Of a stretch of 64,000 nt of DNA, positions 11,778-59,887 are shown one piece after another. The translations under genes and the position numbers were made by a program. Under the pieces are notes generated by a model. It worked only from the letters and a program-made list of their open reading frames with translations. It made no database searches and was not told the origin of the DNA. This DNA comes from Candidatus Levyibacteriota bacterium. GTDB taxonomy: Bacteria; Patescibacteriota; Microgenomatia; Levybacterales; UBA12049. The DNA lies in NCBI GenBank assembly GCA_009695045.1, contig SIBS01000002.1, positions 26,774-90,773 on the forward strand. The letters run 5' to 3'. Each line of letters starts with the position of its first letter. The first letter of the stretch is position 1.

Positions 11778-12774
11778 CGATAAAAAACAATGGACTAATT
11801 TTCTTTCAAAAAAAGAAATTATATACTATCCACTTTTTCAATCATGGAATTGGGGCGAGGTTCAAAAAGCACTAGGATTCTCTATAATTAGAATTGGTTT
11901 ATTTGATAATGATAAATTAGTAGCTGTTTGTTTAATCATAGATATCATCGCAAAGCGTGGGCATTATCTACATCTTCGTCATGGGCCAGTTATCTTAGAT
12001 AAAAATATCGTTTATATTAATGCAATAGTTAATTATGTAAAGAAAATTGCTAAGGAAAAGAAAGCAAAATTTATTAGAATGAGTCCATTATGGGAAAAAA
12101 AGATTGTTGATATAAAATATCTAAAAAATAATGGATGCATTGATGCTCCAATTTATAATATGGATGCTGAATATTGTTGGGTACTAGATATATCAAAATC
12201 TGAAAAAGAACTTCTTTCGGACATGCGTAAGTCTCATCGTTATCTTATACGTAAATCACTTAAAATGCATATTGAGATATCAAAAACAAATGATGTTAAA
12301 GCAGTAGATGATTTCCTTTTATTATATAAAGATCTCTCTGATCGAAAACATTTTGTTCCACATAGAGGAATTAGAGAGGAAGTGATGTTTTTTGGACAAG
12401 ATAATGAAGCACTTCTTTTATTAGCTAGCTGGAATAATGAAATAGCAGGTGGAGCTGTTATTGATTTTGTTGGAAAAATGGCAATATATCATCATGGAGC
12501 AACTCTCTCAAGGTATCGAGATATTCCCCTTTCCTATATTATTCAGTGGCAGGCTATTTTGGAAGCAAAAAAGCGAGGTATGAAAATATATAATTTTTGG
12601 GGAATTGCACCGCTAAATCAGCCTAATCATCCATGGCAAGGTCACACACTTTTTAAAATGGGATTTGGTGGAGAAGTTTGTGAATTTGTACATGCCCAAG
12701 ACATACCGTTATCACTTGATTATTGGCGAAGTTGGATTATTGAAAAAATAACAAAGAAGCTGAAGGGATATTAA
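11755..12774 (+). CDS. FemABX-family peptidoglycan peptidyltransferase (aminoacyl-tRNA-dependent)
   Basis: Conserved Fem-family C-terminal motif YIIQWQAILEAKKRGMKIYNFWGI (compare YLLQWEAIKYAKEKGYKxYDFGGI). About 340 aa with two GNAT-like halves. Confidence 0.7.
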   Translation: MLEIKEVNDKKQWTNFLSKKEIIYYPLFQSWNWGEVQKALGFSIIRIGLFDNDKLVAVCLIIDIIAKRGHYLHLRHGPVILDKNIVYINAIVNYVKKIAKEKKAKFIRMSPLWEKKIVDIKYLKNNGCIDAPIYNMDAEYCWVLDISKSEKELLSDMRKSHRYLIRKSLKMHIEISKTNDVKAVDDFLLLYKDLSDRKHFVPHRGIREEVMFFGQDNEALLLLASWNNEIAGGAVIDFVGKMAIYHHGATLSRYRDIPLSYIIQWQAILEAKKRGMKIYNFWGIAPLNQPNHPWQGHTLFKMGFGGEVCEFVHAQDIPLSLDYWRSWIIEKITKKLKGY

Positions 12775-12854
12775 TACATAGTTAATCGGTTCTTATGTGT
12801 TTAATTCTTTATCTGTTTGCTATTAAAATCAATCACATGATATAATTACTTCTT

Positions 12855-13862
12855 ATGGGACAACTTTTAGGACTTCTTATTATGTCTTTTTTTATATCTG
12901 GAATTCTGTTCATTCCTTTTATAGATTTTCTCTATAAAATAAAACTTCAGAGACAAAAACAAATCACAAAAGACATGTTTAATAAGCATACGCCAATTTT
13001 TGATAAATTTAATTCTTGGAAAGTTGGCACACCGTTTGGAGGAGGTATTCTTATAATAATTGTAGTTACATTGCTTACATTTTGGTCATATGGAGTCTTT
13101 GGTGTAAAGGTAAAGCCATGGGAATTATTTGTATTATTATTTTCATTTATAGGATTTGGATTATTAGGATTATATGATGATATTAAAAAATTATTCCCTG
13201 ACAATAAAGCATTTTTTGGTCTTTCTTTTACTGTAAAATTTCTTATTCAATGGATAATTGCTTTTATTTTAGCTTCTGTATTATATATTAATCTTGGCTA
13301 TTCATTTATTTTTATTCATGGATTTGGATTGGCAAATATTGGATTTTTATATATTCCTATTGCTGCATTTATTATTGTATCTTTTGCTAATGCATTCAAT
13401 ATTGCTGATGGTTTAGATGGACTTGCTTCTGGGCTTCTTTTAATTTGTTTAGGATCTTTTTTAGCAATTTCTTCAACAGCATTAGATCAGGGATTGGGCA
13501 TGTTTATATCTATTCTTATGGGAAGCGTTGGTGCTTTTTTATATTTTAATATTTATAAAGCTCGAATATGGCTTGGAGACGTTGGCTCAATGGCGCTTGG
13601 TGCATCACTTGGAATAATAGGTCTTCTAACAGGAAAAATTATCGCTGTTGCATTTATTGGTGGCGTTTTTGTATTAGAGGCAGGTTCATCACTTTTACAA
13701 ATTTTGAGTAAAAAATTCTTCGGAAAAAAAGTATTTCCTGTATCTCCGCTTCATCTTTATTTACAACGACATGGATGGGAGGAGCCAAAAATTGTCATGC
13801 GTGCTTGGTTACTTGGATTTCTCTTTGCTATTATTGGTCTATACTTCGCTTTCATCGGTTAA
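12855..13862 (+). CDS. mraY: Phospho-N-acetylmuramoyl-pentapeptide transferase
   Basis: Polytopic membrane protein with the NAFNIADGLDGLASG motif and GDVGSMALG. Confidence 0.92.
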   Translation: MGQLLGLLIMSFFISGILFIPFIDFLYKIKLQRQKQITKDMFNKHTPIFDKFNSWKVGTPFGGGILIIIVVTLLTFWSYGVFGVKVKPWELFVLLFSFIGFGLLGLYDDIKKLFPDNKAFFGLSFTVKFLIQWIIAFILASVLYINLGYSFIFIHGFGLANIGFLYIPIAAFIIVSFANAFNIADGLDGLASGLLLICLGSFLAISSTALDQGLGMFISILMGSVGAFLYFNIYKARIWLGDVGSMALGASLGIIGLLTGKIIAVAFIGGVFVLEAGSSLLQILSKKFFGKKVFPVSPLHLYLQRHGWEEPKIVMRAWLLGFLFAIIGLYFAFIG

Positions 13863-17869: not shown

Positions 17870-17960
17870 TATTTTTTCTAAAATATAAAAAGTTAATTAT
17901 ATTTATTATTCAATTTGCTTATTGCAAAATTTATTCTCTTTTGTTAGGATTTGTTCACAC

Positions 17961-19085
17961 ATGTTGATAAGACCTCAATCTACTAACTTTGCCAAAATAC
18001 GCGTTTTGGGCGTAGGTGGTGGTGGAAGTAATGCTGTTAATTCAATGATATCTCAAAGCAAGATACAAAACGTTGATTTTATCGTAATTAATACTGATGC
18101 CCAGGCACTTCTTAATAGTCAATGTTCTATTAAATTACAAATTGGTGAAGGGATTACTAAGGGGCTTGGGTCTGGAGGAGATCCTGAAATTGGAAAACAA
18201 GCCGCAGAGGAGAGTCGTGAAAAGATTAAAGATATGCTTGAGGGTTCCAATATGGTTTTTATTGCATCAGGCATGGGTGGTGGAACCGGAACTGGTGCAG
18301 CTCCAATTGTTGCTCAAATAGCGAAAGAAATTGGCGCACTGACAATAGCAGTTGTTACTAAGCCATTTATTTTTGAGGGAACTCGTCGCATGGTTTCTGC
18401 TGAAGAGGGCCTGGAAGAACTTAAGGGAAAAGTGGATACACTTATAGTAATTCCAAATCAGCGAATTTTAGATGTCGTTGATAAAAAATTATCTCTTTTA
18501 GAAGCATTTCGTGTTGCTGATTCGGTTTTGTCTCAAGGTGTGCAGGGAATTTCTGATCTTATTACAATGCCCGGTTTAATAAATGTTGATTTTGCAGATG
18601 TTAGATCTATAATGACTGACGCAGGCTCGGCTCTTATGGGTATCGGCACAGGTGTTGGAGAGAATCGTGCTCAAACCGCAGCAAGGAGTGCGGTTGCATC
18701 CCCCTTGTTAGAAATATCTATGGATGGCGCAAGAGGTGTTCTTTTTAACATTATAGGAGGTCCTGATCTTGCGATGAGTGAAGTGGATGAAGCTGCTAAA
18801 ATTATTGCAGCAGCTGCTGATCCTGATGCTAATATAATATTTGGTGCAACAATAGATAATAATATGCATGATCAACTTAAGGTTACATTAATTGCAACTG
18901 GATTCGATAACAATAAACAAAGACTTAAAGAATTTATGCCTAGACAGTCACAAATAGTTCAATCAGTAGATTATGGACAATCTAATCATTCATCGGCACC
19001 AATAAATCAGATAATAGATGAATCAAAACAGCAAAAAGAAGATGATGAATTTGAAATCCCCGCATTCTTAAGAGAGAGGAATTAA
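17961..19085 (+). CDS. ftsZ: Cell division GTPase FtsZ
   Basis: [11 protein letters not shown] and [10 protein letters not shown] tubulin signature; C-terminal FtsA/ZipA-binding peptide [11 protein letters not shown]. The ORF track begins at a TTG at 17922; the in-frame ATG at 17961 (MLIRPQ...) is the more likely start. Confidence 0.92.
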
Positions 19086-19451
19086 TTTTTCTTAGTCCTT
19101 AAATTATTTGTCCCAAAACAACGATATTATTTATTTTCCATTATGTTGGTAAAATTTTAGTAATTAAGGTTTTTAAATTGTAAAAACTAGAAAAAGCATA
19201 TAGAGTTTTTGCATTAAGCATTTTGAATCCAGAAATTTTAAGCTCTACTTTAATCAAGTTAGTCATGTAAGTTCTTGTATGTCCGTTTAGATTTTTTTTA
19301 TTTTTTCTAACCCTTTATTTAAGGGAATAGAAATAATAATGTATCCATTTGGAGTTAACATTTTTCTAATAATTCTTAATATTTTAAAAGTTTATGAAGG
19401 GGATATATACTCCAGCACCTCAACCATTAAAGCTGCATCAAATTATTTTGG

Positions 19452-19676
19452 TTAATACTTCATATTATCAACAGACTTTAATTTAAAAAAATCATCAAAC
19501 TTTTTATTTAAATGTTTTATTGCATTTGGGGAAATATCATTTCCATGTAATTTAATATCTCTTTCTCCATTTTTAATTAATTTTTCAACATATTCATAGC
19601 CTGCGCCTATATCTATTATATTTTTAACGTTTTTAGGAATTAAATTATAGATTATTTTTATTCTATTTTTAGTCAT
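19452..19676 (-). pseudogene. Truncated class I SAM-dependent methyltransferase remnant (N-terminal 74 aa only)
   Basis: Motif I IIDIGAGYEY and motif II acidic residue (LHGNDISPNAI) are present, but the ORF stops after 74 aa. Downstream sequence is full of stops in all frames. Confidence 0.4.
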
Positions 19677-20074: not shown

Positions 20075-20665
20075 ATGAGTAAATATGTAAAATGGTTTAT
20101 AATAATATTAATTTTTATTTATTTTTTTATATTTTTTGATAAAAATATTTTTCAAAATAATACTGTTATTAGTAGGCCAATAACTGCATCAATTATTCCT
20201 CAATCAAATGATGTTCATTCCCCTGACGGTTCATTTAGCATTGTAATGCAATCAAAGGAAAGCAATAGTGGTTTTTTTACCTACGAATTTTTTATTGAAA
20301 ATATATCTGGAGGTAAAAAAAAATTACTTTTTGCAACCAGTGGAGAGGGTGGAGAATTTTGGATTACTCCAAATGCATGGTCACCAGACAATAATTATAT
20401 ATATATATTGGAAAGAAAAAATAATAAATTAAATGCAATGATTTTTAAATCATCAGGTGAAAGTTTTGCAAATGGTGATGTTTATATTGATACATCGCCA
20501 ATTTTTATTAGTCGTAGAACGGGATATGAAATAGTTGATATAACTGGTTGGGATTCTCCTACGTTATTGCATGTAGTAACAAAAAATCATCAAGATATTG
20601 GTCCTTCTTTTTGGTTTGATGTTCCAAGTAAAACTTTTATGCAATTATATAATCGTTCCCTATAG
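20075..20665 (+). CDS. Hypothetical signal-anchored/exported protein
   Basis: N-terminal hydrophobic anchor (WFIIILIFIYFFIFF), then a beta-rich region with a TolB-like WSPDNNYIY motif. No confident family assignment. Confidence 0.45.
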   Translation: MSKYVKWFIIILIFIYFFIFFDKNIFQNNTVISRPITASIIPQSNDVHSPDGSFSIVMQSKESNSGFFTYEFFIENISGGKKKLLFATSGEGGEFWITPNAWSPDNNYIYILERKNNKLNAMIFKSSGESFANGDVYIDTSPIFISRRTGYEIVDITGWDSPTLLHVVTKNHQDIGPSFWFDVPSKTFMQLYNRSL

Positions 20666-21337
20666 TGTCTTTAGCATTTTTTCAGTAGCTTTTATACTTA
20701 AATCTTCGCCATTATAAATAAATTCAAATATTATTTCATTATTTTTATTATTTTTTATGTAAAGATTTTGTAATTGATTTACCGAACCCTTATCATAGGG
20801 ATTACTATAAATAGATACACTGAATTCGCTTGGAATCTCGGGTATCTTCATAAAATCATGGCGTGTTGGAGCAGTTGCTTCAAGATTAGCATCTTTAGCA
20901 ACCCAATACAGTAGAGATGCTAGATGACAAACTCCATCTCCAGCCAAGTATCCATCAGATTTAAATCCTTCTGATAAATTAAAATGTGAATTGGTCGTTT
21001 TATCTATTTTATTTTGATATTCTGGTAGAACATCATCGTGAAATGCAAAAATTTCATCAGGTTTCAATACCATGCTATACTTAAATGGTTTATTAATTTT
21101 ATCCCAATCAATATTATTTGAATCTATTTTTTTATCAGAAGTATATTTAATTGTAAGGAGAATATTTTCTTTAAAAACATTATTTACAAAAGAATTACCA
21201 TATCTATTATTTAATGAAAAAGTATGAGACGAGATCTCCTTTACTACAAATTGTTTTGGAATAATTTGTTTTACTGGTGATTCAGTAAAAAATGGAATAA
21301 ATAAAAGTGATGCAAATGTCATAATCTTTATAGACAT
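20660..21337 (-). CDS. VanW-like domain exported protein
   Basis: Signal peptide (MSIKIMTFASLLFIPFF); VanW-type motif GYLAGDGVCHLASLLYWVAKDANLE (compare GGGVCQVSTTLYNA). Confidence 0.6.
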   Translation of the reverse strand: MSIKIMTFASLLFIPFFTESPVKQIIPKQFVVKEISSHTFSLNNRYGNSFVNNVFKENILLTIKYTSDKKIDSNNIDWDKINKPFKYSMVLKPDEIFAFHDDVLPEYQNKIDKTTNSHFNLSEGFKSDGYLAGDGVCHLASLLYWVAKDANLEATAPTRHDFMKIPEIPSEFSVSIYSNPYDKGSVNQLQNLYIKNNKNNEIIFEFIYNGEDLSIKATEKMLKTL

Positions 21338-21466
21338 AGTATCCTATAAGATGTAGATTATACTATACTATAAGATTAATGTCAAGTAGTTTTTAAGCTC
21401 ATTTTAATGTTTAGGTACATAAATATCATCATTTACTTTTTAATAATAATGCTATACGCTTGAATC

Positions 21467-22174
21467 ATGCTAAGCATTGGATTAAAATCTGTATCATGGA
21501 CTCGTTCTAGTGTTATTTTATTTTTATTTATAATAGCCTTGATATGGAGAATATTTGTATATGGATTTGATTTTAAAAATAAGTGTGCTAATTCAATCAG
21601 TTGTATAAAAGATATTTCTGGAATATTTCAGATAGGGAAAAAAAATATATTTTTGTCTCGATCTATTACTTCTCTGCCATATGTATCTAATAAAAATAAT
21701 ATACATACTGTGCTTGGCAATACTACTTCAATTGGAGAAAAGCATATATTCATTGATTTAGATACGCAGCAACTTTATGCATATGAGGATAAAATACAGG
21801 TCTATGCTTTTCCTGTATCAACAGGTAAATGGGGCAAGACTCCAACTGGAACTTTTAGGATATGGATTAAAATAAGAAATGCTCATATGGAAGGAGGTTC
21901 TGGGGATGATTATTATAATCTTTATAACGTACCCTATACAATGTTTTTTTCAAATGAAAATGTTGATGCTAGTCTAGGTTTTAGCATTCATGGTGCCTAT
22001 TGGCACAATAATTTTGGTTATCCGATGAGTCATGGATGCATAAATTTACGTCCTGAAGATGCTGAGAAAATTTATGGCTGGGCTGATCCTCCAACACGGG
22101 GAATTTCTACTCATTCAACAACTAAAAATAAAGGAACATTAATTACTATTTATGGTGAGCCTCATATGAATTAA
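21467..22174 (+). CDS. L,D-transpeptidase (YkuD domain), membrane-anchored
   Basis: N-terminal TM; catalytic region HGAYWHNNFGYPMSHGCINL carries the YkuD H...SHGC(I/V)(R/N)L motif. Confidence 0.8.
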   Translation: MLSIGLKSVSWTRSSVILFLFIIALIWRIFVYGFDFKNKCANSISCIKDISGIFQIGKKNIFLSRSITSLPYVSNKNNIHTVLGNTTSIGEKHIFIDLDTQQLYAYEDKIQVYAFPVSTGKWGKTPTGTFRIWIKIRNAHMEGGSGDDYYNLYNVPYTMFFSNENVDASLGFSIHGAYWHNNFGYPMSHGCINLRPEDAEKIYGWADPPTRGISTHSTTKNKGTLITIYGEPHMN

Positions 22175-22307
22175 ATATCTATTAAATTTTCCTATTTGTC
22201 TATGAATTATTTTAATATTAATCCATAGAAACTTATTTAGAATTTATTATTGTTTATTATACTTTTTGCCTATTGTATCTATAATCTAATACTATACAAT
22301 AATTTTT

Positions 22308-22967
22308 ATGCCTATTATGCCAAAAATTATTCGCTCATCACGTCTCTCTATGAGTATAAGAATTAATTTAATGGGAGAAGTTATCGTTCGAGCTCCTAAA
22401 TTTATCCCCACATTTTTAATAAAAAAATTTATCTTATCAAAGCAAAATTGGATTGATGCATCACTTAAAAAAGTAAATATTTATCATAAAAAAGAAAAGC
22501 AATATATTGAAGGTGAGGAATTTATGTATTTAGGAAATAAATACATATTTCAATTTATAGATACTGATAAAATTTTTATAAGTGATAATAAATTATTTTT
22601 TCCAAAAATATTATTATTTAGAGCAGAAAAAGAAATTAAAAATTGGTATATACGACTCGCAAAAGATAAGATTACAGAACGACTAGATCATAAAGCAAAA
22701 GAAATGGGTATGCAATATAAGAGCATTTTATTCTCTGATACTCAATCTAAGTGGGGTACATGTTGGCCAGATAATGCTTTACAATTTAACTGGAGACTTA
22801 TAATGGCGCCATTGATGGTATTGGATTATGTTGTAATTCATGAATTGGCACATACAAAAGAAAAAAATCATAGTAATAAATTTTGGAGCATAGTATCTAT
22901 ATATACTCCAGCATGGAAACAGCATAGGAAATGGCTTAATAATAACTCTTATTTATTAAATTATTAA
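22308..22967 (+). CDS. DUF45/YgjP-family zinc metallohydrolase (WLM/SprT-like)
   Basis: C-terminal FNWRLIMAPLMVLDYVVIHELAHTKEKNHSNKFWSIV matches the YgjP pattern NWRLxxAPxxVIDYVVVHELAHLxExNHSxxFW with an HExxH zinc site. Confidence 0.75.
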   Translation: MPIMPKIIRSSRLSMSIRINLMGEVIVRAPKFIPTFLIKKFILSKQNWIDASLKKVNIYHKKEKQYIEGEEFMYLGNKYIFQFIDTDKIFISDNKLFFPKILLFRAEKEIKNWYIRLAKDKITERLDHKAKEMGMQYKSILFSDTQSKWGTCWPDNALQFNWRLIMAPLMVLDYVVIHELAHTKEKNHSNKFWSIVSIYTPAWKQHRKWLNNNSYLLNY

Positions 22968-23013
22968 TAAATTAATCTGAATATATTATTGATGGTTTTT
23001 TATAGTTTATAAA

Positions 23014-23619
23014 TTATGTAAATGTCATTTTTTTATAAATATTACGAGTGACCTCAACATCTTTTTTGCAATATTCGCATATTTCTTTAATTCGACCATC
23101 TTCATATGCCTTAGCAACATCTTTGCCTTCCATTGCTCCACCTTTTGATGATGGAATATTCAATGCTTTCGCTAAAGAATCTAAGCTAATTTTTGCATAC
23201 TGATCCCATTTTGCCCATTCCTTCATGAGATCATACATGGGATTATTTCGATATCTGGCAAAAGTAAGATCCCTGGTAGGTTTTACTTCATTTATAATAG
23301 ATCTTTGATAAATAAATCTCATATCAAAATCTATAATATTGAAACCAACAAATAACTCAATTGTTTTAGCTATATCCCAAAATTGTTGGAGCATCTCTTT
23401 TTCAGTACCGCAAATTATTTGTATTTGACCATCATTAATAGCATAAGATATGCAAGCTATTCTCCCAAAAGCACCATCAAAACTAGTTTCTGCTATAAAT
23501 AGATCCAATTCTTTTACTTGCTTTCCATCATCAATTTTTTTTTGATGAATCTCAGCAAGCATAACATGCTTATTTTTATCTGCTGGTAGAGTTTCAATAT
23601 CAAAATATAATATATTCAT
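23014..23619 (-). CDS. DEDD-type 3'-5' exonuclease (RNase H-like fold, PolB-exonuclease-related; YprB/RNase_H_2-like)
   Basis: Exo I motif YFDIETLP at the N-terminus, internal FNIIDFDMRF (Exo II-like), and a C-terminal region with further acidic residues. 201 aa, stand-alone. Confidence 0.6.
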   Translation of the reverse strand: MNILYFDIETLPADKNKHVMLAEIHQKKIDDGKQVKELDLFIAETSFDGAFGRIACISYAINDGQIQIICGTEKEMLQQFWDIAKTIELFVGFNIIDFDMRFIYQRSIINEVKPTRDLTFARYRNNPMYDLMKEWAKWDQYAKISLDSLAKALNIPSSKGGAMEGKDVAKAYEDGRIKEICEYCKKDVEVTRNIYKKMTFT

Positions 23620-23730
23620 TATATTAGTATATAAATTTTTATACGAGTAATCAAGTTAATTTTAAAAAATAGTTTACATTGTTAATATAGTTCTTTATAA
23701 ATATTAATAATACCGTATAATATATTTATT

Positions 23731-24735
23731 ATGAATAATAATCGTTTTAATAATATAGATTTTATTCGAGCAATTGCAATTATCTGTGTTATCGCTACCC
23801 ATGTATATTCTCGTCATTTATTTGGTGAATTTAATATCTTAATTTGGAATTATTTACATTTTACTATTTTTATGTTTATTTTTTGTTCTGGCTACGTATT
23901 ATCATTGCGATATGAATTTGAATTTAATTCATGGAAACAAATACTCTCTTGGTATTTTAAAAGATCTCAAAGATTAATTATTCCATTTTATTGTTACCTT
24001 TTTGTACATTATTTATTATGGTATTTATTTCCACAATTTTTTGATGGCTTAGAATTAAATAATTCATTTAATTTTATAGTTCAATCAATTTTTCTAACAG
24101 GAGGAGTAAATGCTAATTGGTTGGTTCTGCTTTTTATACAGCTTACAGTCTTATTACCTTTACTTACAAAAATATATATTAAAAAAATTATAATAATATT
24201 TTATATTTTATTTTCTACATTTTTTACAATATATATTACTTTTATTCCATTTTCATATAATTTATCTCGTTATGTAATGTGGATACCGTGGTCATTAGCA
24301 TTATTGTTTTCCATTTACGCATCTAGGAATAAGATAAGTAATAAGAAATACATATCTCTGGCGATATTGTCAGGCATATTATTTTATTTATTTAATTTTT
24401 TACATCCATTTAATAAGTCTCTTTCTCTTTATGACCATAAATATCCATCAGATTTATATTATTTATCATATGAATTTTTTATTACATTTATTTTATTATC
24501 AATTAGCCAATCTTCATATTTGAAAAATTCATTTTTACAAAAATCATATGAATATATCAGTCATAAATCTTATTCTTTATATTTTATTCATTATATTGTT
24601 TTAGATTTTATATTTAAAGTAACAAATAATTATTATTTATTTTCAAATATTTTTATCCAATTTTTATTAATTTTATCTATAAGTCTTTTTACATGTTGGT
24701 TATTAGATAAATTATCTCGAATATTATTAATTTAA
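23731..24735 (+). CDS. Acyltransferase family 3 (OafA/OatA-like) integral membrane O-acyltransferase
   Basis: N-terminus FIRAIAIICVIATHV is the acyltransferase-3 signature with catalytic His; about 10 TM helices; extremely AT-rich. Confidence 0.7.
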   Translation: MNNNRFNNIDFIRAIAIICVIATHVYSRHLFGEFNILIWNYLHFTIFMFIFCSGYVLSLRYEFEFNSWKQILSWYFKRSQRLIIPFYCYLFVHYLLWYLFPQFFDGLELNNSFNFIVQSIFLTGGVNANWLVLLFIQLTVLLPLLTKIYIKKIIIIFYILFSTFFTIYITFIPFSYNLSRYVMWIPWSLALLFSIYASRNKISNKKYISLAILSGILFYLFNFLHPFNKSLSLYDHKYPSDLYYLSYEFFITFILLSISQSSYLKNSFLQKSYEYISHKSYSLYFIHYIVLDFIFKVTNNYYLFSNIFIQFLLILSISLFTCWLLDKLSRILLI

Positions 24736-24789
24736 TTATAATAATATTATCTAATATATTTTTATTTTTTTTTATATTATAATAGTCTA

Positions 24790-25683
24790 ATGAATAAAAA
24801 AGCAAAATTAAAAAAAAATAAAAATAATTATCTTCGTAATTTAAATTATAATCAAGCAATATTTTTTATATTATTTTTAATTATTATTTATATCTTTAAT
24901 ATAGTTAAAAGTAATATTAATTATTTTAAATCAAAAATTAAGCCTCATATTGCTAAGGGAACAATTGCCTCAGTTAATCAACCCTTATCTAGTATTAGAT
25001 TACCAATTTTTTTATATCATTATGTTGAGTATGTAGCTGATCAAAACGATACTATTCGTAAATCACTTAATATTCAACCATGGGTATTGGAAAAGCAAAT
25101 ACAGACACTTAAAGATGCTGGATATAATTTTATTACTCCTTCTGAGGCAATACAAATGCTTAATGGAAATATCCCACTCGTTATTAAACCAATTATTCTC
25201 TCATTTGATGATGGATATAGGGATTTTTATACTGATGTTTTCCCAATTATTAAAAAAGAAAAAGTAAGAGCAATTGTATACATTGTGCCTGGATTTATCG
25301 ATAAAATAAATTTTATGTTCAGGAATCAGTTAGAGGAAGTTGCTGATAGTTCATTAATAGAAATCGGCGCACATACAGTAAATCATGTTTGGCTTAAGGG
25401 GCTTGAGGCACATCATATTAAGAAAGAGATTGTAGAAAGTAAATTATTGCTAGAGGACTCTATTCATAGAAAAGTTGTATCATTTGCATATCCATATGGG
25501 GCTTTTGATGATCAAATATCAAAAATAGTAAAAGAAGCTGGTTTTACATCTTCAGTATCAACCATCTCTGGAATTGAAGCTACTCACTTAAATAAATTTT
25601 ATCTTTTTAGATTGCGACCCGGTAATCGTATTGGAAAGTCATTAATTGATTGGTTAGATCAATCTGTATTTTATTCATGGTAA
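24790..25683 (+). CDS. Polysaccharide deacetylase (NodB homology / CE4), membrane-anchored
   Basis: N-terminal TM; NodB motifs LSFDDGYRDFYTDVFP (TFDDG-like) and GAHTVNHVWL (H-x-x-x-H). Confidence 0.75.
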   Translation: MNKKAKLKKNKNNYLRNLNYNQAIFFILFLIIIYIFNIVKSNINYFKSKIKPHIAKGTIASVNQPLSSIRLPIFLYHYVEYVADQNDTIRKSLNIQPWVLEKQIQTLKDAGYNFITPSEAIQMLNGNIPLVIKPIILSFDDGYRDFYTDVFPIIKKEKVRAIVYIVPGFIDKINFMFRNQLEEVADSSLIEIGAHTVNHVWLKGLEAHHIKKEIVESKLLLEDSIHRKVVSFAYPYGAFDDQISKIVKEAGFTSSVSTISGIEATHLNKFYLFRLRPGNRIGKSLIDWLDQSVFYSW

Positions 25684-25762
25684 ATTATTTTATAATTTGA
25701 CGATATTTTCCCAAGTAAATTAAATTCTTCCAAAATGGCCATATGAAGCAGTTGATAAATAA

Positions 25763-26667
25763 ATAGGTCTACGTAGATTAAGACCTTTAATAATTCCCTC
25801 CAACGATGTGTCTAAAATTTTACTTACGAAATTATTTATCATATTAGGAGATGATCTTGATGTATTAAAAGTTTCTACTTCTTACATAAGTGTTTTTATG
25901 CTTGCTAAAAAAATACTCCAATAACCCCTGATTTAACAAAAAAATTACATCATTTACTCATGAATAAGATAGAATTTAAATATTTAGGTTAATTTCGCGA
26001 TAACCCCGTCTTCGTTGGGCATCGTACAAAAGAGGAAATTGTTGTAAAACATAATCCTCCATTTCATACTAGGCAAGAGATTGAGACTGCATTAATTGAA
26101 TTATTTGATTAGCTTATGAGTCAAGATGATTTGCATCCATTGATAAAGGCAGGGGTTTTTCATCATCAGTTTGTATCCATGCACCCTTTTTTAGATTGTA
26201 ACGGACGCCTTACTAGGATTCTTACTGAATATTATTTATTATTAAAAAATTATGAAGTTGCTAAATACTTTATACTAGATGATTATTATGATATGGATAG
26301 GCATCTGTATTCCGATAAGTTACATACTGCAGATCAGGGAGATAAAACAACTTGGCTTTAATATTTTTTAGAAGGTATTGGTCACTCCCTAAAGCCTGCA
26401 ATTGCTATAATAAATGAATTGAAAAGATTTAATATGGAAGATATAACTGGAGAGAAAAGAGTGCTTGTAACCAATAGGGAAGAAGAGGTATTGGAGATTG
26501 TAATAAATAAAAAAGCTGTAAAAACTACAGATATACAAGAGAATCTTTCAGTAACCCGTCAACAGGCTCATTCCTTGCTAGCTTCATTAGTTAGGAAAGG
26601 GTTACTTTGTAAGTTTGGAAAGACAAAAAAAAGTTATTATAAATTAGTAACTAAATTAAATAACTAA
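25763..26667 (+). pseudogene. Decayed Fic/Doc-family (AMPylator-like) gene with a C-terminal winged-helix domain, interrupted by several stops and one frameshift
   Basis: From ~25909 to 26667, frame 1 reads ...ITPDLTKKLHHLLMNKIEFKYLG*FRDNPVFVGHRTKEEIVVKHNPPFHTRQEIETALIELFD*LMSQDDLHPLIKAGVFHHQFVSMHPFLDCNGRLTRILTEYYLL...DKTTWL*YFLEGIGHSLKPAIAIINEL...wHTH. The core motif is HPFLDCNGRLTR (canonical HPFx[D/E]GNGRxxR, with G mutated to C). A TAA at 25906, TAA at 25987, TAG at 26107 and TAA at 26359 interrupt one continuous frame. The segment upstream of 25906 is in a different frame. Confidence 0.65.
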
Positions 26668-26750: not shown

Positions 26751-29555
26751 ATGTTTAAGTCTGTAAATCCGCAAGTAGATTTTCCAAAACAAGAAGAAGA
26801 AATACTTGAATTTTGGAAAAAAAATAAAATATTTGAAAAATCATTAGATAAAGATGCGCCGAATGGAAAATGGACATTTCTTGATGGCCCACCTTTTATT
26901 ACAGGTCTTCCGCATTATGGAACATTACTTGTAAGTATTCCTAAAGATGTTTTTCCTCGATTTTGGACAATGCGTGGATATATGGTAAGACGTGTTTGGG
27001 GATGGGATGTTCACGGATTGCCTGCTGAAAATAAAGTAGAAGTTAAGCTGGGCATTGAACGCAAAAAAGATATAGAAGAAAAGATTGGAATTAAGCAATT
27101 TATAGATGAATGTCGTAATTACGTAAGTGAATCTTCAAGGGAATGGGAATGGTATATTGATCATATCGCAAGATGGGTTGATTTTAAAAATGCTTATAAA
27201 ACAATGGATATTTCCTATATGGAATCTGTGATGTGGGTTTTTAAGCAAATGTATGAAAAAGGATATATATATAAGGGACTTCGTGTCTCTCTATATTGTC
27301 CACATTGCTCAACTCCAATCTCTAATTTTGAAGTTGCAATGGATCCTGACAATTATAAAGAGATTACAGAGGCATCAAATACTTATAAATATCAACTTGT
27401 TGAGAGTAGTGATACCTATTTACTTGCATGGTCAACTACGCCGTGGAATAAATTAGTTACATCAGCTCTTGCTGTAAATTCAAAGTTGGATTATGTTAAG
27501 GTCGAACAAGGTAAAGAAAAATATATCTTGGCAAAATCAAAAATAAAAATTTTAGTAGGTGAATATAAAATTATTCAAGAAATAAGTGGTATTGATCTTA
27601 TTGGTCTCTCCTTTGTGCCACATTATGATTTTTATACCATTGATAGTGATAAAAAAGCATTTATAATTGTTGATGGTGATTTCGTTACTGCGGAAGAAGG
27701 AACTGGAATAGTCACTATAGCGGCTTATGGTGAAGAAGATTTAGTTGTTATGCAAAAAGAAAATATTCAAATAATGCTACATGTTGATGATGAAGGAATG
27801 ATTAAAAAAGAAATTCCAAAATGGAACGGAATGTATTACCTAAAGGTAAATAAATTAGTAAATGAAGATTTAGTAAATAGAGGACTAATGTATAAGGAAG
27901 AAGACTATATTCATAAAATTCCTACGTGCTGGCGATGCCATACTAGGCTTATATACGCTCCTCAAAATGCTTGGTATGTTAATGTTCAAATTCTTAAGGA
28001 TAGGATGAGAAAAAATAACGAAGAAGTAAATTGGTTTCCTAAGCACTTTAAAATGGGTCGTTATTTAAAAAGTTTGGAGTCAGCACCAGATTGGTGTATT
28101 TCAAGAAGTAGGTATTGGGGTTCCCCTGTTCCAGTATGGGAGTGTGAATGCGGAGAGCGAATTGTTCCTGGATCAATTGCTGAGCTAGAAGAATTTTCTG
28201 GTAAAAAAATTACTGATTTACATAAGCCTGAAATTGATCAGATAACAATACTTTGTAATAAATGCAAATCTATTACAAAGAGAGTTCCTGAAGTTTTGGA
28301 TAGTTGGATAGAGGCTGGTTCAGCGTCGTTTGCAGAACGTCATTATCCATTTAATGAAAAGGTTAAATTTGCTGATTTCTTCCCTCCAGATTTTATCACT
28401 GAGTATACGGGACAAATTAGAGCTTGGTTTTATGTTTTACATGTTATATCAACTGCCCTATATGATTCAATGGCATTTAAGAACGTTGTTGTAACTGGTG
28501 TAATACTGGGTACCGATGGTAGAAAGATGAGTAAAAATCTAGGAAATTATCCTGATCCAAAAGAGTTATTACAAAAATATGGTGGCGATGCATTACGCCT
28601 TTACCTTATGGGGAGTCCAGTAATGCATGGGGAAGACATGGTTATTTCTGAAGATCAGTATCGAAATCAGATAAAGAATTTTTTATTAGTTTTATGGAAT
28701 ATATATAATTTTTTTGTTTCATATGCATTAATTGATAAGTGGGAGCCAAGTAATTTTAGCAAAGATAATTTAAATATATTGGATAAATGGATATTATCAA
28801 AGCAACAGGATCTTATTATGGAATTAACAGCTTCCTTAGAGGAATATGATACAATGACGGCAATTAATAAAGCTAAGTTATTTATTGATGATTTTTCAAT
28901 GTGGTATATTCGACGAAGTAGAGAGCGAATAGGTCCAAGTGCAAAATTTATATTAGAAAAAAAATCTTTTTATAATACTTGCTACAAAGTATTAACCACA
29001 TTATGTAAACTATTGGCTCCAATCGCTCCTTTTGTTACTGAGGCGATGTATAAAAATCTTACAAATGAGGAATCCGTGCACTTATCTAATTGGCCTCAGT
29101 ACGAATCTTTATTAAGAGATAAGGGGTTAGAGGAGGAAATGGAACGAGCTCGTAAAATAGTAGAAAGAGCGCATGCTCTTCGTAAAGAGCACTCTATAAA
29201 AGTAAGAATTCCATTAAGGAATCTTAATTATTCTGGTCCATTTAAATTAAGTGAAGAAATTAAATTAATAGTGCTTGATGAAATAAATGTTCTAATTCTA
29301 AATTATTTAGGCAAGACAAATGATTATATTGTATCCGGTGAAATGAATGAAGAAAATCAAGATATTATTGCAGGAAAAGCTAGGGATATTATTCGAAGCA
29401 TTCAAGAGGAGAGAAAAAAATTAGGAACTAGAATTGATGAGGAAGTTGATGTTGTTTTACCAAATTGGCCAATTGAATTAGAAAGTGAGATAAAAAGAAA
29501 AGCATTAATTAAATCACTTTCTAAGGGTGATACACTGACTGTAATTAGATTATGA
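26751..29555 (+). CDS. ileS: Isoleucine--tRNA ligase
   Basis: Class I aaRS; HYGTLL (HIGH-like), KMSKN(LG) KMSKS motif, CP1 editing-domain size, and the WCISRSRYWGSPVP motif typical of IleRS. 934 aa. Confidence 0.9.
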   Translation: MFKSVNPQVDFPKQEEEILEFWKKNKIFEKSLDKDAPNGKWTFLDGPPFITGLPHYGTLLVSIPKDVFPRFWTMRGYMVRRVWGWDVHGLPAENKVEVKLGIERKKDIEEKIGIKQFIDECRNYVSESSREWEWYIDHIARWVDFKNAYKTMDISYMESVMWVFKQMYEKGYIYKGLRVSLYCPHCSTPISNFEVAMDPDNYKEITEASNTYKYQLVESSDTYLLAWSTTPWNKLVTSALAVNSKLDYVKVEQGKEKYILAKSKIKILVGEYKIIQEISGIDLIGLSFVPHYDFYTIDSDKKAFIIVDGDFVTAEEGTGIVTIAAYGEEDLVVMQKENIQIMLHVDDEGMIKKEIPKWNGMYYLKVNKLVNEDLVNRGLMYKEEDYIHKIPTCWRCHTRLIYAPQNAWYVNVQILKDRMRKNNEEVNWFPKHFKMGRYLKSLESAPDWCISRSRYWGSPVPVWECECGERIVPGSIAELEEFSGKKITDLHKPEIDQITILCNKCKSITKRVPEVLDSWIEAGSASFAERHYPFNEKVKFADFFPPDFITEYTGQIRAWFYVLHVISTALYDSMAFKNVVVTGVILGTDGRKMSKNLGNYPDPKELLQKYGGDALRLYLMGSPVMHGEDMVISEDQYRNQIKNFLLVLWNIYNFFVSYALIDKWEPSNFSKDNLNILDKWILSKQQDLIMELTASLEEYDTMTAINKAKLFIDDFSMWYIRRSRERIGPSAKFILEKKSFYNTCYKVLTTLCKLLAPIAPFVTEAMYKNLTNEESVHLSNWPQYESLLRDKGLEEEMERARKIVERAHALRKEHSIKVRIPLRNLNYSGPFKLSEEIKLIVLDEINVLILNYLGKTNDYIVSGEMNEENQDIIAGKARDIIRSIQEERKKLGTRIDEEVDVVLPNWPIELESEIKRKALIKSLSKGDTLTVIRL

Positions 29556-33064: not shown

Positions 33065-34111
33065 ATGACCATTGTCTTTTTTTGTCGATTGTTTTATCCC
33101 CATATTGGTGGTGTGGAAAAACATGTAATGGAAATTGCTAAACGATTAGTTTCACTTGGTAATAAGCTAATAATTATAACAGAATCATCTCTCGAAGTTT
33201 ATTCAGAAGGAAATAAGCCAATTTTATTTGAAATAATTGATAATATTGAAGTATATCGTATTCCAGTTGAAAAGAATGAATCAAGTAAAAAATGGATTAT
33301 CTGGCGATGGATGTGGAAGAATAAGCAAATTTGGCATAATGCTGATATTTTGCACTTTCATGATGTTTTTTTCTGGTATTTGCCGTTTCGATTATTAAAT
33401 TTATCTAAAAATGCATACATAACTTTTCATGGTTATGAGGGTTATCCTCTTAAAAAAAAAGCGGTTTTAATAAGAAAACTTGCTGAAATATTAACAAATG
33501 GAAATATTTGCATAGGAGATTTTATAAAAAAGTGGTATGGAACAAAATCTACATATGTTTCATATGGAGCGGTGAACATTTCTAAAGAGAAAAAAGTTCA
33601 CCAACCTTCTCCATTCTCAGCGCTTTTTTATGGCAGATTGGATAATCAGACTGGGATAACGATATATGATGCTGCAATGATTATAATAAATAAAAAATAT
33701 CCACAATTTTCTCTAACAATTATTGGTGACGGACCCTTGAGAGATAAAATTGATGATAAAATAAGGCGTTTTGGATATCAAATCAATATTTCAGAATATC
33801 TTAAAAATAATAGATTTGTTTTTATTTCTAGCTATCTTTCTATTCTTGAAGCACTTGCTGCCAAAAGACTTGTTTTTGCGGTTTACGATAATCCTATAAA
33901 AAAAGATTATTTAGAGATGGCCCCATTTGCGTCATTTATTATTATCGAAAATAGCCATCAAAAATTAGCTGAAAAAGTTGCCTTTTTTATAAAAAATCCA
34001 ACCTTAGAAGCTTACAAGATTGAAGAAGGATACAAATGGGTCAAAAATCAGACATGGGATAGTGTTGTCAAATTATATTTAAAATTATGGAATAAGCATA
34101 ATATAATATGA
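33065..34111 (+). CDS. GT-B fold glycosyltransferase (GT4-like)
   Basis: N-terminal GT4 start YPHIGGVEKHVMEIAKRL; C-terminal Rossmann half with an EALAAKRLVFAV-type donor-binding region. Confidence 0.6.
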   Translation: MTIVFFCRLFYPHIGGVEKHVMEIAKRLVSLGNKLIIITESSLEVYSEGNKPILFEIIDNIEVYRIPVEKNESSKKWIIWRWMWKNKQIWHNADILHFHDVFFWYLPFRLLNLSKNAYITFHGYEGYPLKKKAVLIRKLAEILTNGNICIGDFIKKWYGTKSTYVSYGAVNISKEKKVHQPSPFSALFYGRLDNQTGITIYDAAMIIINKKYPQFSLTIIGDGPLRDKIDDKIRRFGYQINISEYLKNNRFVFISSYLSILEALAAKRLVFAVYDNPIKKDYLEMAPFASFIIIENSHQKLAEKVAFFIKNPTLEAYKIEEGYKWVKNQTWDSVVKLYLKLWNKHNII

Positions 34112-35043: not shown

Positions 35044-35241
35044 TAAGATAAAAAATATATAAATATTTTTTTTATTTTGTTATTTTTTACATCATCAATA
35101 TTTATTAAAAAAATCTAATAGCTTCTATTGATCTTATAATTAACAATAAAATGTACAAGTACTATCAAAAATAGCGTTATATTTATATGAATACAGAAGA
35201 AATAGCTTTGAGTGAATTAATTAAGTATAATAAGAATAGTT

Positions 35242-36459: not shown

Positions 36460-36631
36460 TATTTTATAAAGCATGTTGATTTCAATATTTATTCAATGTG
36501 CTATTATATATAATTGTCACAGATTAAGAATTTAAAAAATGAAGAAATTTTATACAAAATATTGAATAGTCTCTTTATTATGTGTATGTATATTAAAAAT
36601 GAAAGTAGACAAAAGTAGATAAAAAGAAAAT

Positions 36632-40654: not shown

Positions 40655-40756
40655 AAAAAATAATATTTCTTATATATCACCTTTTTATATATATATATTT
40701 TTTGTAGTTTATATATTATTCGATTATATACAATATCTTCTTTGCAGGGTTAAAAT

Positions 40757-59504: not shown

Positions 59505-59523
59505 TGTTTATTATTATTTTATT

Positions 59524-59811: not shown

Positions 59812-59887
59812 AAAACCATTATAATAATTTATGAACCTGAAGGCAAGGACATCAAGGTATTTAAAAAATAAATATTATTATCATTTT

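Follow-up and report, generated by a model that had tools for sequence, protein, structure and literature searches.

Gene content of the ftsZ–ileS junction

The interval 20075-25683 of the window (the whole stretch of 64,000 nucleotides that was analysed) comprises seven genes: hyp196, VanW, YkuD, YgjP-like, exonuclease, Acyl_transf_3 (AT3) and CE4. The left syntenic anchor ftsZ ends at position 19085 and the block therefore immediately follows the dcw cluster, as originally predicted. The features discussed are as follows.

17922..19085, plus strand: ftsZ, last gene of the dcw cluster; left syntenic anchor
about 19140..19676, minus strand: decayed class-I SAM-methyltransferase pseudogene; left flank
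20075..20665, plus strand: hyp196, membrane-anchored partial beta-propeller of 196 aa, from a family without a name
20660..21337, minus strand: VanW-like, short single-domain protein; putative Cys/His L,D-transpeptidase-type enzyme
21357..21385, minus strand: putative sigma-70 consensus promoter (TTGACA-17-TATAAT, then AGGA) ahead of the VanW start codon
21467..22174, plus strand: YkuD-type L,D-transpeptidase with one N-terminal membrane anchor (PF03734)
22308..22967, plus strand: YgjP-like zinc metallopeptidase-fold protein with HELAH motif, cytoplasmic (PF01863, 4e-56, full-length)
23014..23619, minus strand: PolB-exonuclease-like 3'-5' exonuclease, cytoplasmic (PF10108, 2.9e-20; RNase_H_2, DNA_pol_B_exo1)
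23731..24735, plus strand: AT3 (acyltransferase-3), stand-alone polytopic membrane O-acyltransferase (PF01757, 67 bits)
24790..25683, plus strand: CE4 de-N-acetylase, membrane-anchored, PplD/IcaB/PgaB type (PF01522, Polysacc_deac_1)
25720..25842, minus strand: remnant of the S-adenosylmethionine synthetase (MetK) C-terminus; right flank
25909..26667, plus strand: Fic-family pseudogene, Fic core and C-terminal winged helix in a single frame
26751..29555, plus strand: ileS, class I tRNA synthetase (Pfam); right syntenic anchor
59888-60655, minus strand: GatD (GATase_3)
60670-61998, minus strand: MurT (MurT_C)

The VanW, YkuD, Acyl_transf_3 and CE4 domains of the original prediction were all confirmed by Pfam at these positions, but hyp196, the YgjP-like metallopeptidase and the exonuclease had been missed. 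The description of the set as exported or membrane-bound wall enzymes fits several envelope enzymes, but not the YgjP-like protein and the exonuclease, which are unrelated to the wall: no hydrophobic segment was found in either protein and they thus are not exported wall enzymes. The anticipated FemAB (11755-12774) and MurT/GatD genes are present in the same window, and a polysaccharide cluster (Wzx/Wzy) is located 7 kb downstream of the block at 33065-43535.

The Tubulin and FtsZ_C domains were read from the L081 gene that is identical to ftsZ here, and FtsZ shares 72-73% identity with its counterparts in the closest Patescibacteria MAGs. The ileS gene is followed by rodA-like, L21 and parB genes in an order (ileS-rodA-L21-parB) that is kept in 14 relatives, and the arrangement ftsZ–gap–ileS–rodA–L21–parB is common to relatives. 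The gap is 7.7 kb here and between 32 bp and 6.8 kb in 14 relatives, with lineage-specific cargo that consists of unrelated genes from one lineage to the next. In a survey of 80 species-level relatives, none of the seven block genes was found within 10 kb of ftsZ.

Pseudogenes flank the block on both sides, in agreement with the original prediction. The methyltransferase pseudogene retains a 74-aa N-terminal ORF with weak methyltransferase Pfam matches; translated beyond the stop it reads FDAALMVEVLEYI...ILRIIRKMLTPNGYIIISIP, with in-frame stops and a frameshift between these segments. The MetK remnant is a 40-aa ORF with a precomputed S-AdoMet_synt_C match, and its translation ends in ...RRPIYLSTASYGHFGRI and a stop codon. 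The Pfam Fic match in the third remnant covers profile positions 56-93 only and the following ORF yields winged-helix matches, whereas the single-frame translation contains the motif HPFLDCNGR and the in-frame stops TAA, TAG and TAA. These three remnants indicate repeated gene gain and loss at the junction. A search of the block borders for an integrase, transposase, tRNA or flanking repeat found none.

The VanW-like, YkuD and hyp196 proteins

The VanW-like ORF matched PF04294 with 35.8 bits (cutoff 27). The protein has 922 homologues, with lengths of 183-267 aa among the 120 listed, and the named homologues among the matches listed are almost all from Levy-/Gottesmanbacteria or Patescibacteria. 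The profile-profile match between this family and canonical VanW is weak (hhalign probability 67%, E 5e-5). Residues C137 and H160 are invariant and occupy the alignment positions of the canonical VanW Cys and His. In contrast, the canonical G-x-D-A motif (GxDAt) is replaced by an invariant G-V-S-I-Y (GVSIY) in 20 of 20 family members and the triad Asp is missing. VanW domains are L,D-transpeptidases, as in Ldt4 and Ldt5 of C. difficile (Bollinger et al., 2024; PMC11348318), and four of the seven canonical VanW proteins assayed showed no activity (PMC11348318). Like the VanW L,D-transpeptidases (PMC11348318), the protein studied here is exported and keeps the GxGxC cysteine and the downstream R..H histidine, in a genome that also encodes a YkuD L,D-transpeptidase. 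Unlike the tested enzymes, it is a single domain of ~215 aa without PG4 or G5, and differs from canonical VanW in a ~65-residue family-specific N-terminal region and in a gene that often adjoins those for YkuD and the propeller-like protein. The putative promoter matches all 12 of 12 consensus positions, which is a consensus match only. The protein may be a minimal exported Cys/His enzyme from the second L,D-transpeptidase family with its own consensus promoter, and its reaction on stem peptides is probably a related acyl transfer, a step that we infer because the canonical Asp is missing. Thus, the "VanW-domain function" predicted originally can now be specified as L,D-transpeptidation (PMC11348318), yet the protein lacks the triad Asp.

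The YkuD ORF matched PF03734 with 82.7 bits (5e-23), and its closest solved structures are those of E. faecium Ldtfm (3ZG4, 1ZAT). The identity is low (E about 1e-7), but the active-site SHGCIN is identical and the two proteins share the catalytic domain and a membrane anchor followed by an extracytoplasmic catalytic domain. At 235 aa, YkuD here is far shorter than Ldtfm, from which it also differs in lacking an additional PG-binding domain and in a family-specific CANSxxC motif before the catalytic domain. Orthologues with 42-64% identity adjoin VanW. By analogy with the family, 3-3 cross-links would be generated through a thioacyl intermediate between Cys191 of SHGCIN and a tetrapeptide donor.

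Searches of Pfam with hyp196 gave no match. The protein consists of approximately three blades (150 residues) of a PD40/TolB-like propeller behind a single membrane anchor, in which it differs from TolB and the S9 peptidase propellers, and possesses neither a peptidase domain nor a catalytic signature. Closing a propeller would require hyp196 to oligomerise. The protein forms the third component of the YkuD/VanW module. Because its gene is immediately 3' of YkuD in many genomes, the most likely role of hyp196 is that of a non-catalytic partner of YkuD or a factor that positions the enzyme.

Pairing of the three genes was counted at 45 related VanW loci whose flanks extend for 1.6 kb or more in each direction, and neighbors in relatives were confirmed as homologous to hyp196 and YkuD. 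YkuD was located within 1.5 kb of VanW at 26 loci, 16 of which also possessed hyp196; hyp196 without YkuD was observed at none of the 45, and neither gene was near VanW at the other 19. Viewed from the hyp196 side, two of the three homologues examined had no YkuD or VanW neighbor. The pairing is recurrent, but not obligatory. The three-gene module is modestly new; the annotation otherwise is mostly ordinary.

The module beside ileS and the probable insertion

L090 and L091, which are the closest relatives when ranked by VanW identity (61–62%), have ileS, CE4 and YkuD on one strand, VanW on the opposite strand and hyp196 again on the first, in that order. The CE4 orthologue adjoins both YkuD and ileS in these genomes with a YkuD-CE4 spacing of 4-5 bp, and the YgjP-like, exonuclease and AT3 genes are missing there. 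As both relatives carry hyp196–VanW–YkuD–CE4 beside ileS, the YgjP-like, exonuclease and AT3 genes constitute a lineage-specific insertion, which spans 2.6 kb between YkuD and CE4. In L090 and L091 no YgjP-like gene separates YkuD from CE4, and the exonuclease gene was not found in the module of relatives. The hyp196/VanW/YkuD trio is located between ileS and ftsZ in L099. The module was not found near ftsZ in the closest relatives by FtsZ (L001, L003 and L004), so that an ancestral position next to ileS rests on L090, L091 and L099.

The CE4 protein matched PF01522 with 86.9 bits (1.3e-24). The best solved match is PplD of S. pyogenes (6DQ3, 4e-24) and the best NCBIfam model is PgaB (2.5e-26), with PgaB and IcaB far above the PgdA models (2e-4 at most). 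In common with PplD, IcaB and PgaB, the protein is anchored in the membrane at its N-terminus and carries an extracellular CE4 domain with the catalytic His before the DD motif, HxxxH, MT3 without Arg and a C-terminal Arg. Orthologues keep H77, D140, D141, H195, H199, R274 and R276, and equivalents of PplD H105, D167, D168, H223, H227 and R302 all are present. Unlike in the PplD, IcaB and PgaB systems, no genes for PNAG or rhamnopolysaccharide synthesis, such as GacO, RgpG or PgaC-like genes, were identified beside CE4, which is accompanied in the genome by an L,D-transpeptidase gene instead of a polysaccharide operon. With the full set of PplD catalytic residues, the enzyme most likely de-N-acetylates GlcNAc outside the membrane; judged by family resemblance, candidate targets are a wall-linked glycan, a linkage unit or peptidoglycan itself.

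Within the insertion, only AT3 is predicted to act on the envelope. The protein has at least seven hydrophobic segments, and PF01757 spans residues 7-325 of 334 which leaves no room for an SGNH domain. The TM1 His (H24), R13 and the KRxxR motif are shared with OatA, Oac and NolL; H24, K77 and R78 are invariant in the family and R13 nearly so. However, OatA has a C-terminal SGNH domain and, as this domain is missing here, the "OatA-like" label applied originally fails and the architecture is of the Oac/NolL type. AT3 homologues share at most 48% identity and occur in unrelated contexts, the four with an organism name being from Microgenomates lineages; in other genomes the gene shows no linkage to CE4 or L,D-transpeptidase genes. 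The family resemblance suggests an Oac/NolL-style stand-alone O-acyltransferase whose likeliest substrate would be a surface glycan, such as the product of the Wzx/Wzy cluster (33-43.5 kb).

Composition, origin and alternative readings

The composition of the block gives no sign of foreign origin: GC3 is 0.163 both in the block and in the rest of the window, and the synonymous codon fit of block genes to the window has z values of -0.6 to +1.2. The acyltransferase and deacetylase genes had been described as more AT-rich, which is correct for the acyltransferase (GC 0.204) but not for the deacetylase (0.274, <0.5 SD off the window mean of 0.292). The acyltransferase is the only AT-rich block gene owing to its amino-acid make-up: the low GC is located in codon positions 1 and 2, GC3 (0.128) is inside the range of the window, and the pattern recurs in two more membrane genes at 40757-43535. 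The block does not vary among near-identical assemblies, as the six compared have 99.8-100% identity and one gene order. The CE4 protein is present on at least 24 contigs, and identical proteins are deposited under Candidatus Levyibacteriota LBMAG33. The best homologues of every block gene searched are from Microgenomates. A compositional trace is not expected for intra-phylum transfer from equally AT-rich donors.

The interval probably represents a native mosaic at a variable junction in the chromosome of an uncultured Candidatus Levybacteria member (Microgenomates, CPR), rather than one wall-decoration island acquired as a unit. Three layers may be distinguished: a clade-conserved envelope module of hyp196, VanW-like, YkuD and CE4 beside ileS, a later lineage-specific insertion that would have split YkuD from CE4, and the methyltransferase, MetK and Fic remnants on both flanks. 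The original prediction of a variable, possibly horizontally acquired region is borne out for variability by the absence of the block near ftsZ in the 80 species-level loci, which together with the flanking pseudogenes, the low GC of the acyltransferase and the lack of three of the genes in L090 and L091 despite their collinearity elsewhere could be read as an accessory island acquired as a whole to decorate mature peptidoglycan. Such an acquisition is distinctly improbable given the native GC3 and codon usage, low GC confined to codon positions 1 and 2 as in the other membrane genes of the window, borders devoid of mobility features, Microgenomates homologues, collinearity of four of the seven genes with ileS in relatives, invariance across the six assemblies, and two genes that do not specify wall enzymes. 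Uniform composition and strict conservation had been set as the mark of a core block; only the former was found, since conservation of the block does not extend across relatives.

The functional assignments have competing readings of their own. Loss of the triad Asp raises the lesser, though appreciable, possibility that the VanW-like protein is not a transpeptidase, but instead an L,D-carboxypeptidase/endopeptidase that supplies or trims YkuD substrates, for example, or a non-catalytic PG-binding partner. The invariant G-V-S-I-Y replacement, the missing PG4 and G5 domains and the inactivity of several canonical VanW proteins in L,D-transpeptidase assays (PMC11348318) are consistent with this role, and frequent pairing with YkuD would fit complementary rather than redundant functions. 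Invariance of Cys137 and His160, aligned with the catalytic pair, argues for the transpeptidase-type assignment, and the Asp could be replaced by D134 and D149, acidic residues that are invariant in and specific to this family. Moreover, a Cys/His dyad can suffice for catalysis in thiol acyl-transferases. It is unlikely that AT3 and CE4 form a functional pair that modifies peptidoglycan glycan strands by OatA-like O-acetylation and PgdA-like de-N-acetylation, for instance for lysozyme resistance. The two genes are adjacent on the same strand with 54 bp between them, both families act on acetyl groups of extracytoplasmic glycans, and CE4 shows weak matches to PdaA, PdaB and PgdA models. However, AT3 has no SGNH domain, no AT3 homologue is beside CE4 in the other genomes looked up, and CE4 directly follows YkuD in L090 and L091 without an AT3 gene. 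Furthermore, the Wzx/Wzy glycan cluster could offer another substrate, and CE4 is of the PplD/PgaB type with AYPYG replacing RxPY. The CE4 identity predicted originally stands, but peptidoglycan de-N-acetylation is not the best reading of this enzyme.

Genes between ftsZ and ileS

The interval at 20075-25683, between ftsZ and ileS (26751-29555), contains seven intact ORFs, and the 1-kb gaps on either side of it contain decayed genes.

Genes and gene remnants of the ftsZ-ileS interval
Left flank: class-I SAM-methyltransferase remnant, its frame running on past a stop codon (FDAALMVEVLEYI..., ILRIIRKMLTPNGYIIISIP) through more stops and a frameshift
20075-20665, plus: hyp196, a 196-aa protein with no Pfam match
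20660-21337, minus: VanW-like protein, 225 aa
21467-22174, plus: YkuD L,D-transpeptidase, 235 aa
22308-22967, plus: YgjP-like metallopeptidase-fold protein, 219 aa
23014-23619, minus: PolB-exonuclease-like 3'-5' exonuclease, 201 aa
23731-24735, plus: Acyl_transf_3 protein, 334 aa
24790-25683, plus: CE4 polysaccharide deacetylase, 297 aa
Right flank, 25720-25842, minus: C-terminal remnant of MetK (S-adenosylmethionine synthetase), 40 codons
Right flank, ~25909-26667: Fic pseudogene in a single frame, with in-frame TAA, TAG and TAA and a degenerate HPFLDCNGR motif

The original prediction described this block as a set of wall-modifying enzymes, with acyltransferase and deacetylase genes flanked by pseudogenes. 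The four domains that it named (VanW, YkuD, Acyl_transf_3 and CE4) are present where it had placed them, but three of the seven genes went unmentioned and two of these encode cytoplasmic proteins that are unrelated to the wall. A crude hydropathy scan detected one N-terminal hydrophobic segment each in hyp196, YkuD and the deacetylase, at least seven segments in the acyltransferase, only a short signal-peptide-like stretch at the N-terminus of the VanW-like protein, and none in the YgjP-like protein or the exonuclease. Pseudogenes do flank the block taken as one unit, with the methyltransferase remnant to the left and the MetK and Fic remnants to the right. The stop codons in the Fic gene are mixed, which argues against recoding; the pseudogene has three stops without a frameshift and a Gly-to-Cys change in HxFxDGNGR, and its ORF structure is the same in the assemblies compared. 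An intact metK gene was not seen within the 64-kb window.

The window has a GC content of 29% and its FtsZ is 72-73% identical to FtsZ of Patescibacteria/Microgenomates MAGs; several of its proteins match deposited Candidatus Levyibacteriota bacterium LBMAG33 proteins verbatim. A CPR-style dcw cluster precedes the block in the order murE (cut by the window edge), murC, murB, murA, a split glmU-like pair, glmS, an alpha/beta hydrolase gene, a murF-like ligase gene, a DegT aminotransferase gene, femAB, mraY, ftsW, murG, a small ORF at the ftsQ position, ftsA and ftsZ, the last ending at 19085. The GlmU-like functions are divided between two overlapping ORFs for an NTP_transferase (4563-5312) and a hexapeptide acetyltransferase (5309-5944). 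The hydrolase, murF-like ligase, DegT-family aminotransferase and FemAB genes between glmS and mraY (8195-12774), of which the ligase has an N-terminal extension of ~170 aa, recur as a set in Gottesman- and Woesebacteria loci (L005, L007, L013); in L001-L004, the loci closest by FtsZ, a nucleotidyltransferase gene is followed directly by mraY. The 533-aa Mur ligase at 8917-10518 was considered as a candidate MurT and ruled out, as it is MurF-like.

The actual MurT is encoded at 60670-61998 on the minus strand (MurT_C, 1.9e-29, with Mur_ligase_M) and adjoins GatD at 59888-60655 on the same strand (GATase_3, 3.2e-32). A FemAB-family protein is encoded at 11755-12774 (2.3e-29), so that MurT/GatD and the FemX proposed for the same window were all recovered. 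These genes are compatible with an amidated, branched stem peptide of Gram-positive type. L,D-transpeptidases of E. faecium and M. tuberculosis prefer amidated precursors. On the minus strand at 56776-61998, murT and gatD lie directly beside gatC, gatA and gatB, which places two unrelated glutamine-dependent amidation systems next to each other.

The YkuD, VanW-like and hyp196 genes

The YkuD protein matches PF03734 with 82.7 bits against a Pfam cutoff of 23.4, and its signature IHGAYW...SHGCINL includes H175, H189 and C191, which are invariant in the orthologues aligned. Its best solved relatives are structures of E. faecium Ldtfm, with which the SHGCIN active-site motif is identical. By analogy with its family, the enzyme would form 3-3 cross-links via a Cys thioacyl intermediate. 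In both C. difficile and M. tuberculosis, L,D-transpeptidases are targets for antibiotics.

A 2024 study showed that VanW domains are L,D-transpeptidases of a second family, unrelated to the first, whose catalytic triad is Cys-His-Asp (PMC11348318); the Bollinger preprint already points out that they are common in Patescibacteria. The VanW-like protein of the window matches PF04294 with 35.8 bits against a cutoff of 27, over profile positions 16-128 of 130. For comparison, five annotated canonical VanW proteins were taken from plasmid records that had been retrieved with a 29-aa probe; the profile-profile match to this set was weaker (probability 67%, E 5e-5), and tblastn of the window protein against plasmids gave no match. 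The invariant motifs of the five canonical proteins are GGGxCQVS, R..H and G.DA. In the family of the window protein, GDGVCHLAS (C137) and TRHD (H160) align to the canonical catalytic Cys and His and are invariant in 20 members, whereas the position of the triad Asp (GxDA) is occupied by an invariant G-V-S-I-Y with no conserved acidic residue at or beside it. Unlike canonical VanW, the protein lacks PG4 and G5 domains and has a conserved N-terminal region of its own. Thus, of the hallmarks of a VanW-type L,D-transpeptidase, the Pfam family and the Cys and His are retained and the Asp is not. A related Cys/His acyl transfer would be carried out by the enzyme, and the Asp-less family offers a natural variant for testing how this newly recognized catalytic fold works.

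The VanW and YkuD genes diverge from a 129-bp region that contains a perfect 12/12 sigma-70 consensus (TTGACA-17-TATAAT, 21357-21385, minus strand), together with AGGA, before the VanW ATG. Promoter-like matches across the region were no more frequent than in shuffled sequence (78 vs 67 +/- 8).

The AF2 model of hyp196 (pLDDT 90) comprises a membrane helix (residues 4-22), a linker and twelve strands that are predicted to form about three four-stranded blades. A profile search recovered 757 clusters, 435 of them at E<=1e-30; all are proteins of about 195-220 aa, and the conserved residues correspond to PD40-type SPDG and WSPDN turns rather than to a catalytic set. A role as an Lpp-like, wall-anchored transpeptidase substrate was considered and set aside: the C-terminus of the family is usually Arg, not Lys, and nothing else favored it. 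The protein may instead be a non-catalytic extracytoplasmic partner of L,D-transpeptidases and thus a candidate accessory factor.

Evidence for such a partnership comes from gene neighborhoods. For the short VanW protein, 922 homologues were found; the 120 that were listed have lengths of 183-267 aa and identities of 53-67%, and almost all of the named ones among them belong to Levy- or Gottesmanbacteria or other Patescibacteria. The first three contexts examined each had a YkuD gene and a gene for a 212-220-aa protein without Pfam match adjoining. The latter is homologous to hyp196, with 28-41% identity and common HSPDG, NxWSPDNxY, TGWDS and GPSxWF motifs, and the YkuD genes beside VanW in relatives are orthologous to that of the window. 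A metagenome scan with the VanW alignment yielded 80 further loci, from which the 45 with flanks of 1.6 kb or more on each side were counted. YkuD lay within 1.5 kb of VanW in 26 of these and was accompanied by hyp196 in 16, neither gene was nearby in 19, and hyp196 was never found near VanW without YkuD (0/45). The following arrangements recurred.

Recurring gene arrangements
YkuD< VanW> <hyp196 (the window's own)
YkuD> hyp196> VanW>
VanW> YkuD> hyp196>

The gene for a distant hyp196 homologue, P0141, comes right after a YkuD gene, with which it overlaps, and has no VanW in its vicinity; two other homologues (P0139, P0126) have neither YkuD nor VanW as a neighbor. From the locus counts and these three homologues, the linkage is frequent, not obligatory, and tightest between hyp196 and YkuD. 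The loci of the two relatives closest in VanW, L090 (VanW 62% and IleRS 73% identical to those of the window) and L091 (VanW 61%), share the order ileS< CE4< YkuD< VanW> <hyp196, which L091 continues with rodA-L21-parB. YkuD and CE4 are separated by 4-5 bp in both and look like an operon, and the full-length identity of the deacetylase orthologues is 40%. In a further relative, L099, the trio of hyp196, VanW-like and YkuD genes lies between ileS and ftsZ. The L091 neighborhood is even more wall-focused than that of the window: at 9332-13135 the module is followed by genes for a LapA-domain protein, an 822-aa Beta-lactamase2-domain protein and a second CE4 deacetylase.

No description of a YkuD/VanW/propeller module was found in the literature searched, a limited sample. 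What is new, in Microgenomates, is this recurrent module and a minimal VanW family that lacks the Asp, the other gene content being mostly ordinary. It is conceivable, if rather unlikely, that YkuD, the Asp-less minimal VanW-type enzyme and the three-blade propeller constitute a dedicated Microgenomates machine for cross-linking or anchoring of peptidoglycan, in which the propeller (~757 clusters, no Pfam) would be an unrecognized accessory subunit or regulator of L,D-transpeptidases. If so, small-genome Microgenomates might depend heavily on 3-3 cross-linking, aided by MurT/GatD amidation. Nearly everything said of wall chemistry in CPR/Patescibacteria is deduced from genomes; a Levybacteria lineage that keeps two unrelated Cys-based enzymes of transpeptidase type with a conserved candidate partner near the division cluster, together with FemAB and MurT/GatD, is predicted to have a 3-3 cross-linked, amidated peptidoglycan.

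Composition and variability of the interval

The block had been thought possibly to be horizontally acquired, with the acyltransferase and deacetylase genes more AT-rich than the core genes. The acyltransferase gene is indeed AT-rich (GC 0.204 vs a window mean of 0.292, SD 0.036), whereas the deacetylase gene (0.274) lies within 0.5 SD of the mean. The GC3 of the acyltransferase gene (0.128) is unremarkable and the deficit is confined to codon positions 1 and 2; it therefore reflects amino-acid composition. The same pattern is apparent in two native membrane genes of the downstream polysaccharide cluster (40757-43535; GC 0.205 and 0.202). Mean GC3 is 0.163 both in the block and in the other 51 ORFs, and codon fit, measured as synonymous log-likelihood per codon with the pooled usage of the window's other genes as reference, gave z values from -0.6 to +1.2 for the seven block genes. 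GC, GC3 and synonymous codon likelihood thus gave no signal of a compositional island, and recent foreign origin gets no support from composition. Neither integrase nor transposase Pfam domains were detected in the block, there is no tRNA target near it (the nearest tRNA is at 32874), and the search of its borders for flanking direct repeats, tRNAs and terminators gave only low-complexity AT-rich matches. In very AT-rich genomes, a low-GC gene for a membrane protein is a matter of amino-acid make-up and should not be taken as a mark of foreign origin.

The exact deacetylase protein was found on at least 24 contigs from many samples; samples with this genome include SRR31412735 and DRR583318. 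Six of the loci were compared with the window, to which they are 99.8-100% identical along stretches of up to 20.9 kb, with the same gene order, remnants included; they hold too few SNPs for dN/dS and are uninformative on whether the block varies within the species. With FtsZ as the query, 80 loci were obtained, 14 of which contain both ftsZ and ileS and keep the order ftsA-ftsZ-[gap]-ileS-rodA-L21-parB. The gap measures 32 bp to 6.8 kb in these relatives vs 7.7 kb in the window, and tblastn of the seven block genes against the 80 loci returned no hits (E<1e-3). The block is in 6/6 assemblies from within the species and in 0/80 other species near ftsZ, a comparison of near-identical with distant relatives.

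Genes carried in the ftsZ-ileS gap of relatives
L001: NYN-domain protein
L004: GT2 and PMT_2 glycosyltransferase
L006: ABC-2 transporter and DUF2079 protein
L099: GreA, PD-(D/E)XK nuclease, pseudouridine synthase and peptidase A4

As the gap carries unrelated genes in each lineage, the junction is genuinely variable, as had been proposed. The ileS gene at the same syntenic position is 63-73% identical to that of the window in L004, L007 and L090 and only 30-37% identical in L001, L005, L091 and L099; two classes at one position suggest in-situ replacement by another type of IleRS.

Taken without the MetK and Fic remnants and without the YgjP, exonuclease and acyltransferase genes, the window has exactly the gene order of L090 and L091. 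The most plausible reading of the 2.6-kb segment at 22175-24789, which carries the latter three genes, is therefore a lineage-specific insertion into a module that was already there. Homologues of the YgjP-like protein or the exonuclease, whose genes are convergent neighbors (22308-23619), were absent from the ~160 related loci fetched. Homologues of the acyltransferase are at most 48% identical, the four with an organism name belong to Microgenomates lineages, and they stand alone in unrelated neighborhoods. A functional pair of acyltransferase and deacetylase was rejected in view of three acyltransferase homologue contexts with neither a CE4 nor an L,D-transpeptidase neighbor, and the adjacency of the two genes in the window is not a conserved pairing, as judged from these contexts.

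Overall the evidence best supports a native mosaic, not an acquired island. A conserved envelope module (hyp196, VanW-like, YkuD and CE4) beside ileS in a Levybacteria subclade would have received a later insertion of three unrelated genes, and decayed genes flank, on either side, a junction with evolutionary turnover of its genes. The variable character given to the region by the original prediction thus stands; its foreign look and purely wall-related content do not, and two of the enzyme labels call for correction. What looks like a thematic cluster can turn out to be a conserved module that unrelated genes have split.

The deacetylase, the acyltransferase and candidate glycans

The best solved match of the deacetylase is PplD (6DQ3, 4e-24), followed by Bacillus 'deacetylase-like' proteins, IcaB and PgaB. 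Among NCBIfam models, PgaB (2.5e-26) and IcaB scored far above PgdA (2e-4), all under their equivalog cutoffs; the PgdA models gave 19-21 bits against cutoffs of 400-800. In the canonical MT1-MT5 order, the catalytic His belongs to MT5 and MT3 has the Arg of RxPY; in the window protein, H77 as the catalytic His comes before the DD motif and MT3 is AYPYG. Motif order, MT3 and the low PgdA scores all speak against the canonical CE4 type of PgdA, a peptidoglycan GlcNAc deacetylase. PplD belongs to a rearranged CE4 subgroup without MT4 and the MT3 Arg, and de-N-acetylates GlcNAc of the rhamnopolysaccharide-peptidoglycan linkage unit (PMC8807736). The YH, FDDG, HTVNH and R-x-R motifs of the window protein align with it as equivalents of H105, D167, D168, H223, H227 and R302, the catalytic roles of which are known from the same study (PMC8807736). 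These residues are all invariant in the L090 and L091 orthologues, and the anchor-plus-ectodomain architecture is the same as in PplD. The enzyme would accordingly be expected, from its family, to de-N-acetylate GlcNAc in a wall-linked glycan or peptidoglycan. No synthase gene diagnostic of a linkage-unit or PNAG substrate was detected near it.

In the acyltransferase, PF01757 covers residues 7-325 of 334; H24 (the TM1 His), K77 and R78 are invariant, R13 is nearly so, and a KRxxR motif is conserved. The protein had been called OatA-like. This assignment fails since the domain fills the protein and neither a C-terminal SGNH nor any second domain was found; it is a stand-alone acyltransferase of Oac/NolL type that may O-acylate a surface glycan. 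A possible alternative source of substrates for both this enzyme and the deacetylase is a Wzx/Wzy-type polysaccharide cluster at 33065-43535, with genes for GT4, GT2, a Polysacc_synt_3 flippase, GT1, a 735-aa GT2, another GT2, a 528-aa membrane protein without Pfam match and Wzy_C. The window's highest AT content is reached in the last two genes of this cluster (GC about 0.20, FYMINK 0.51-0.53).
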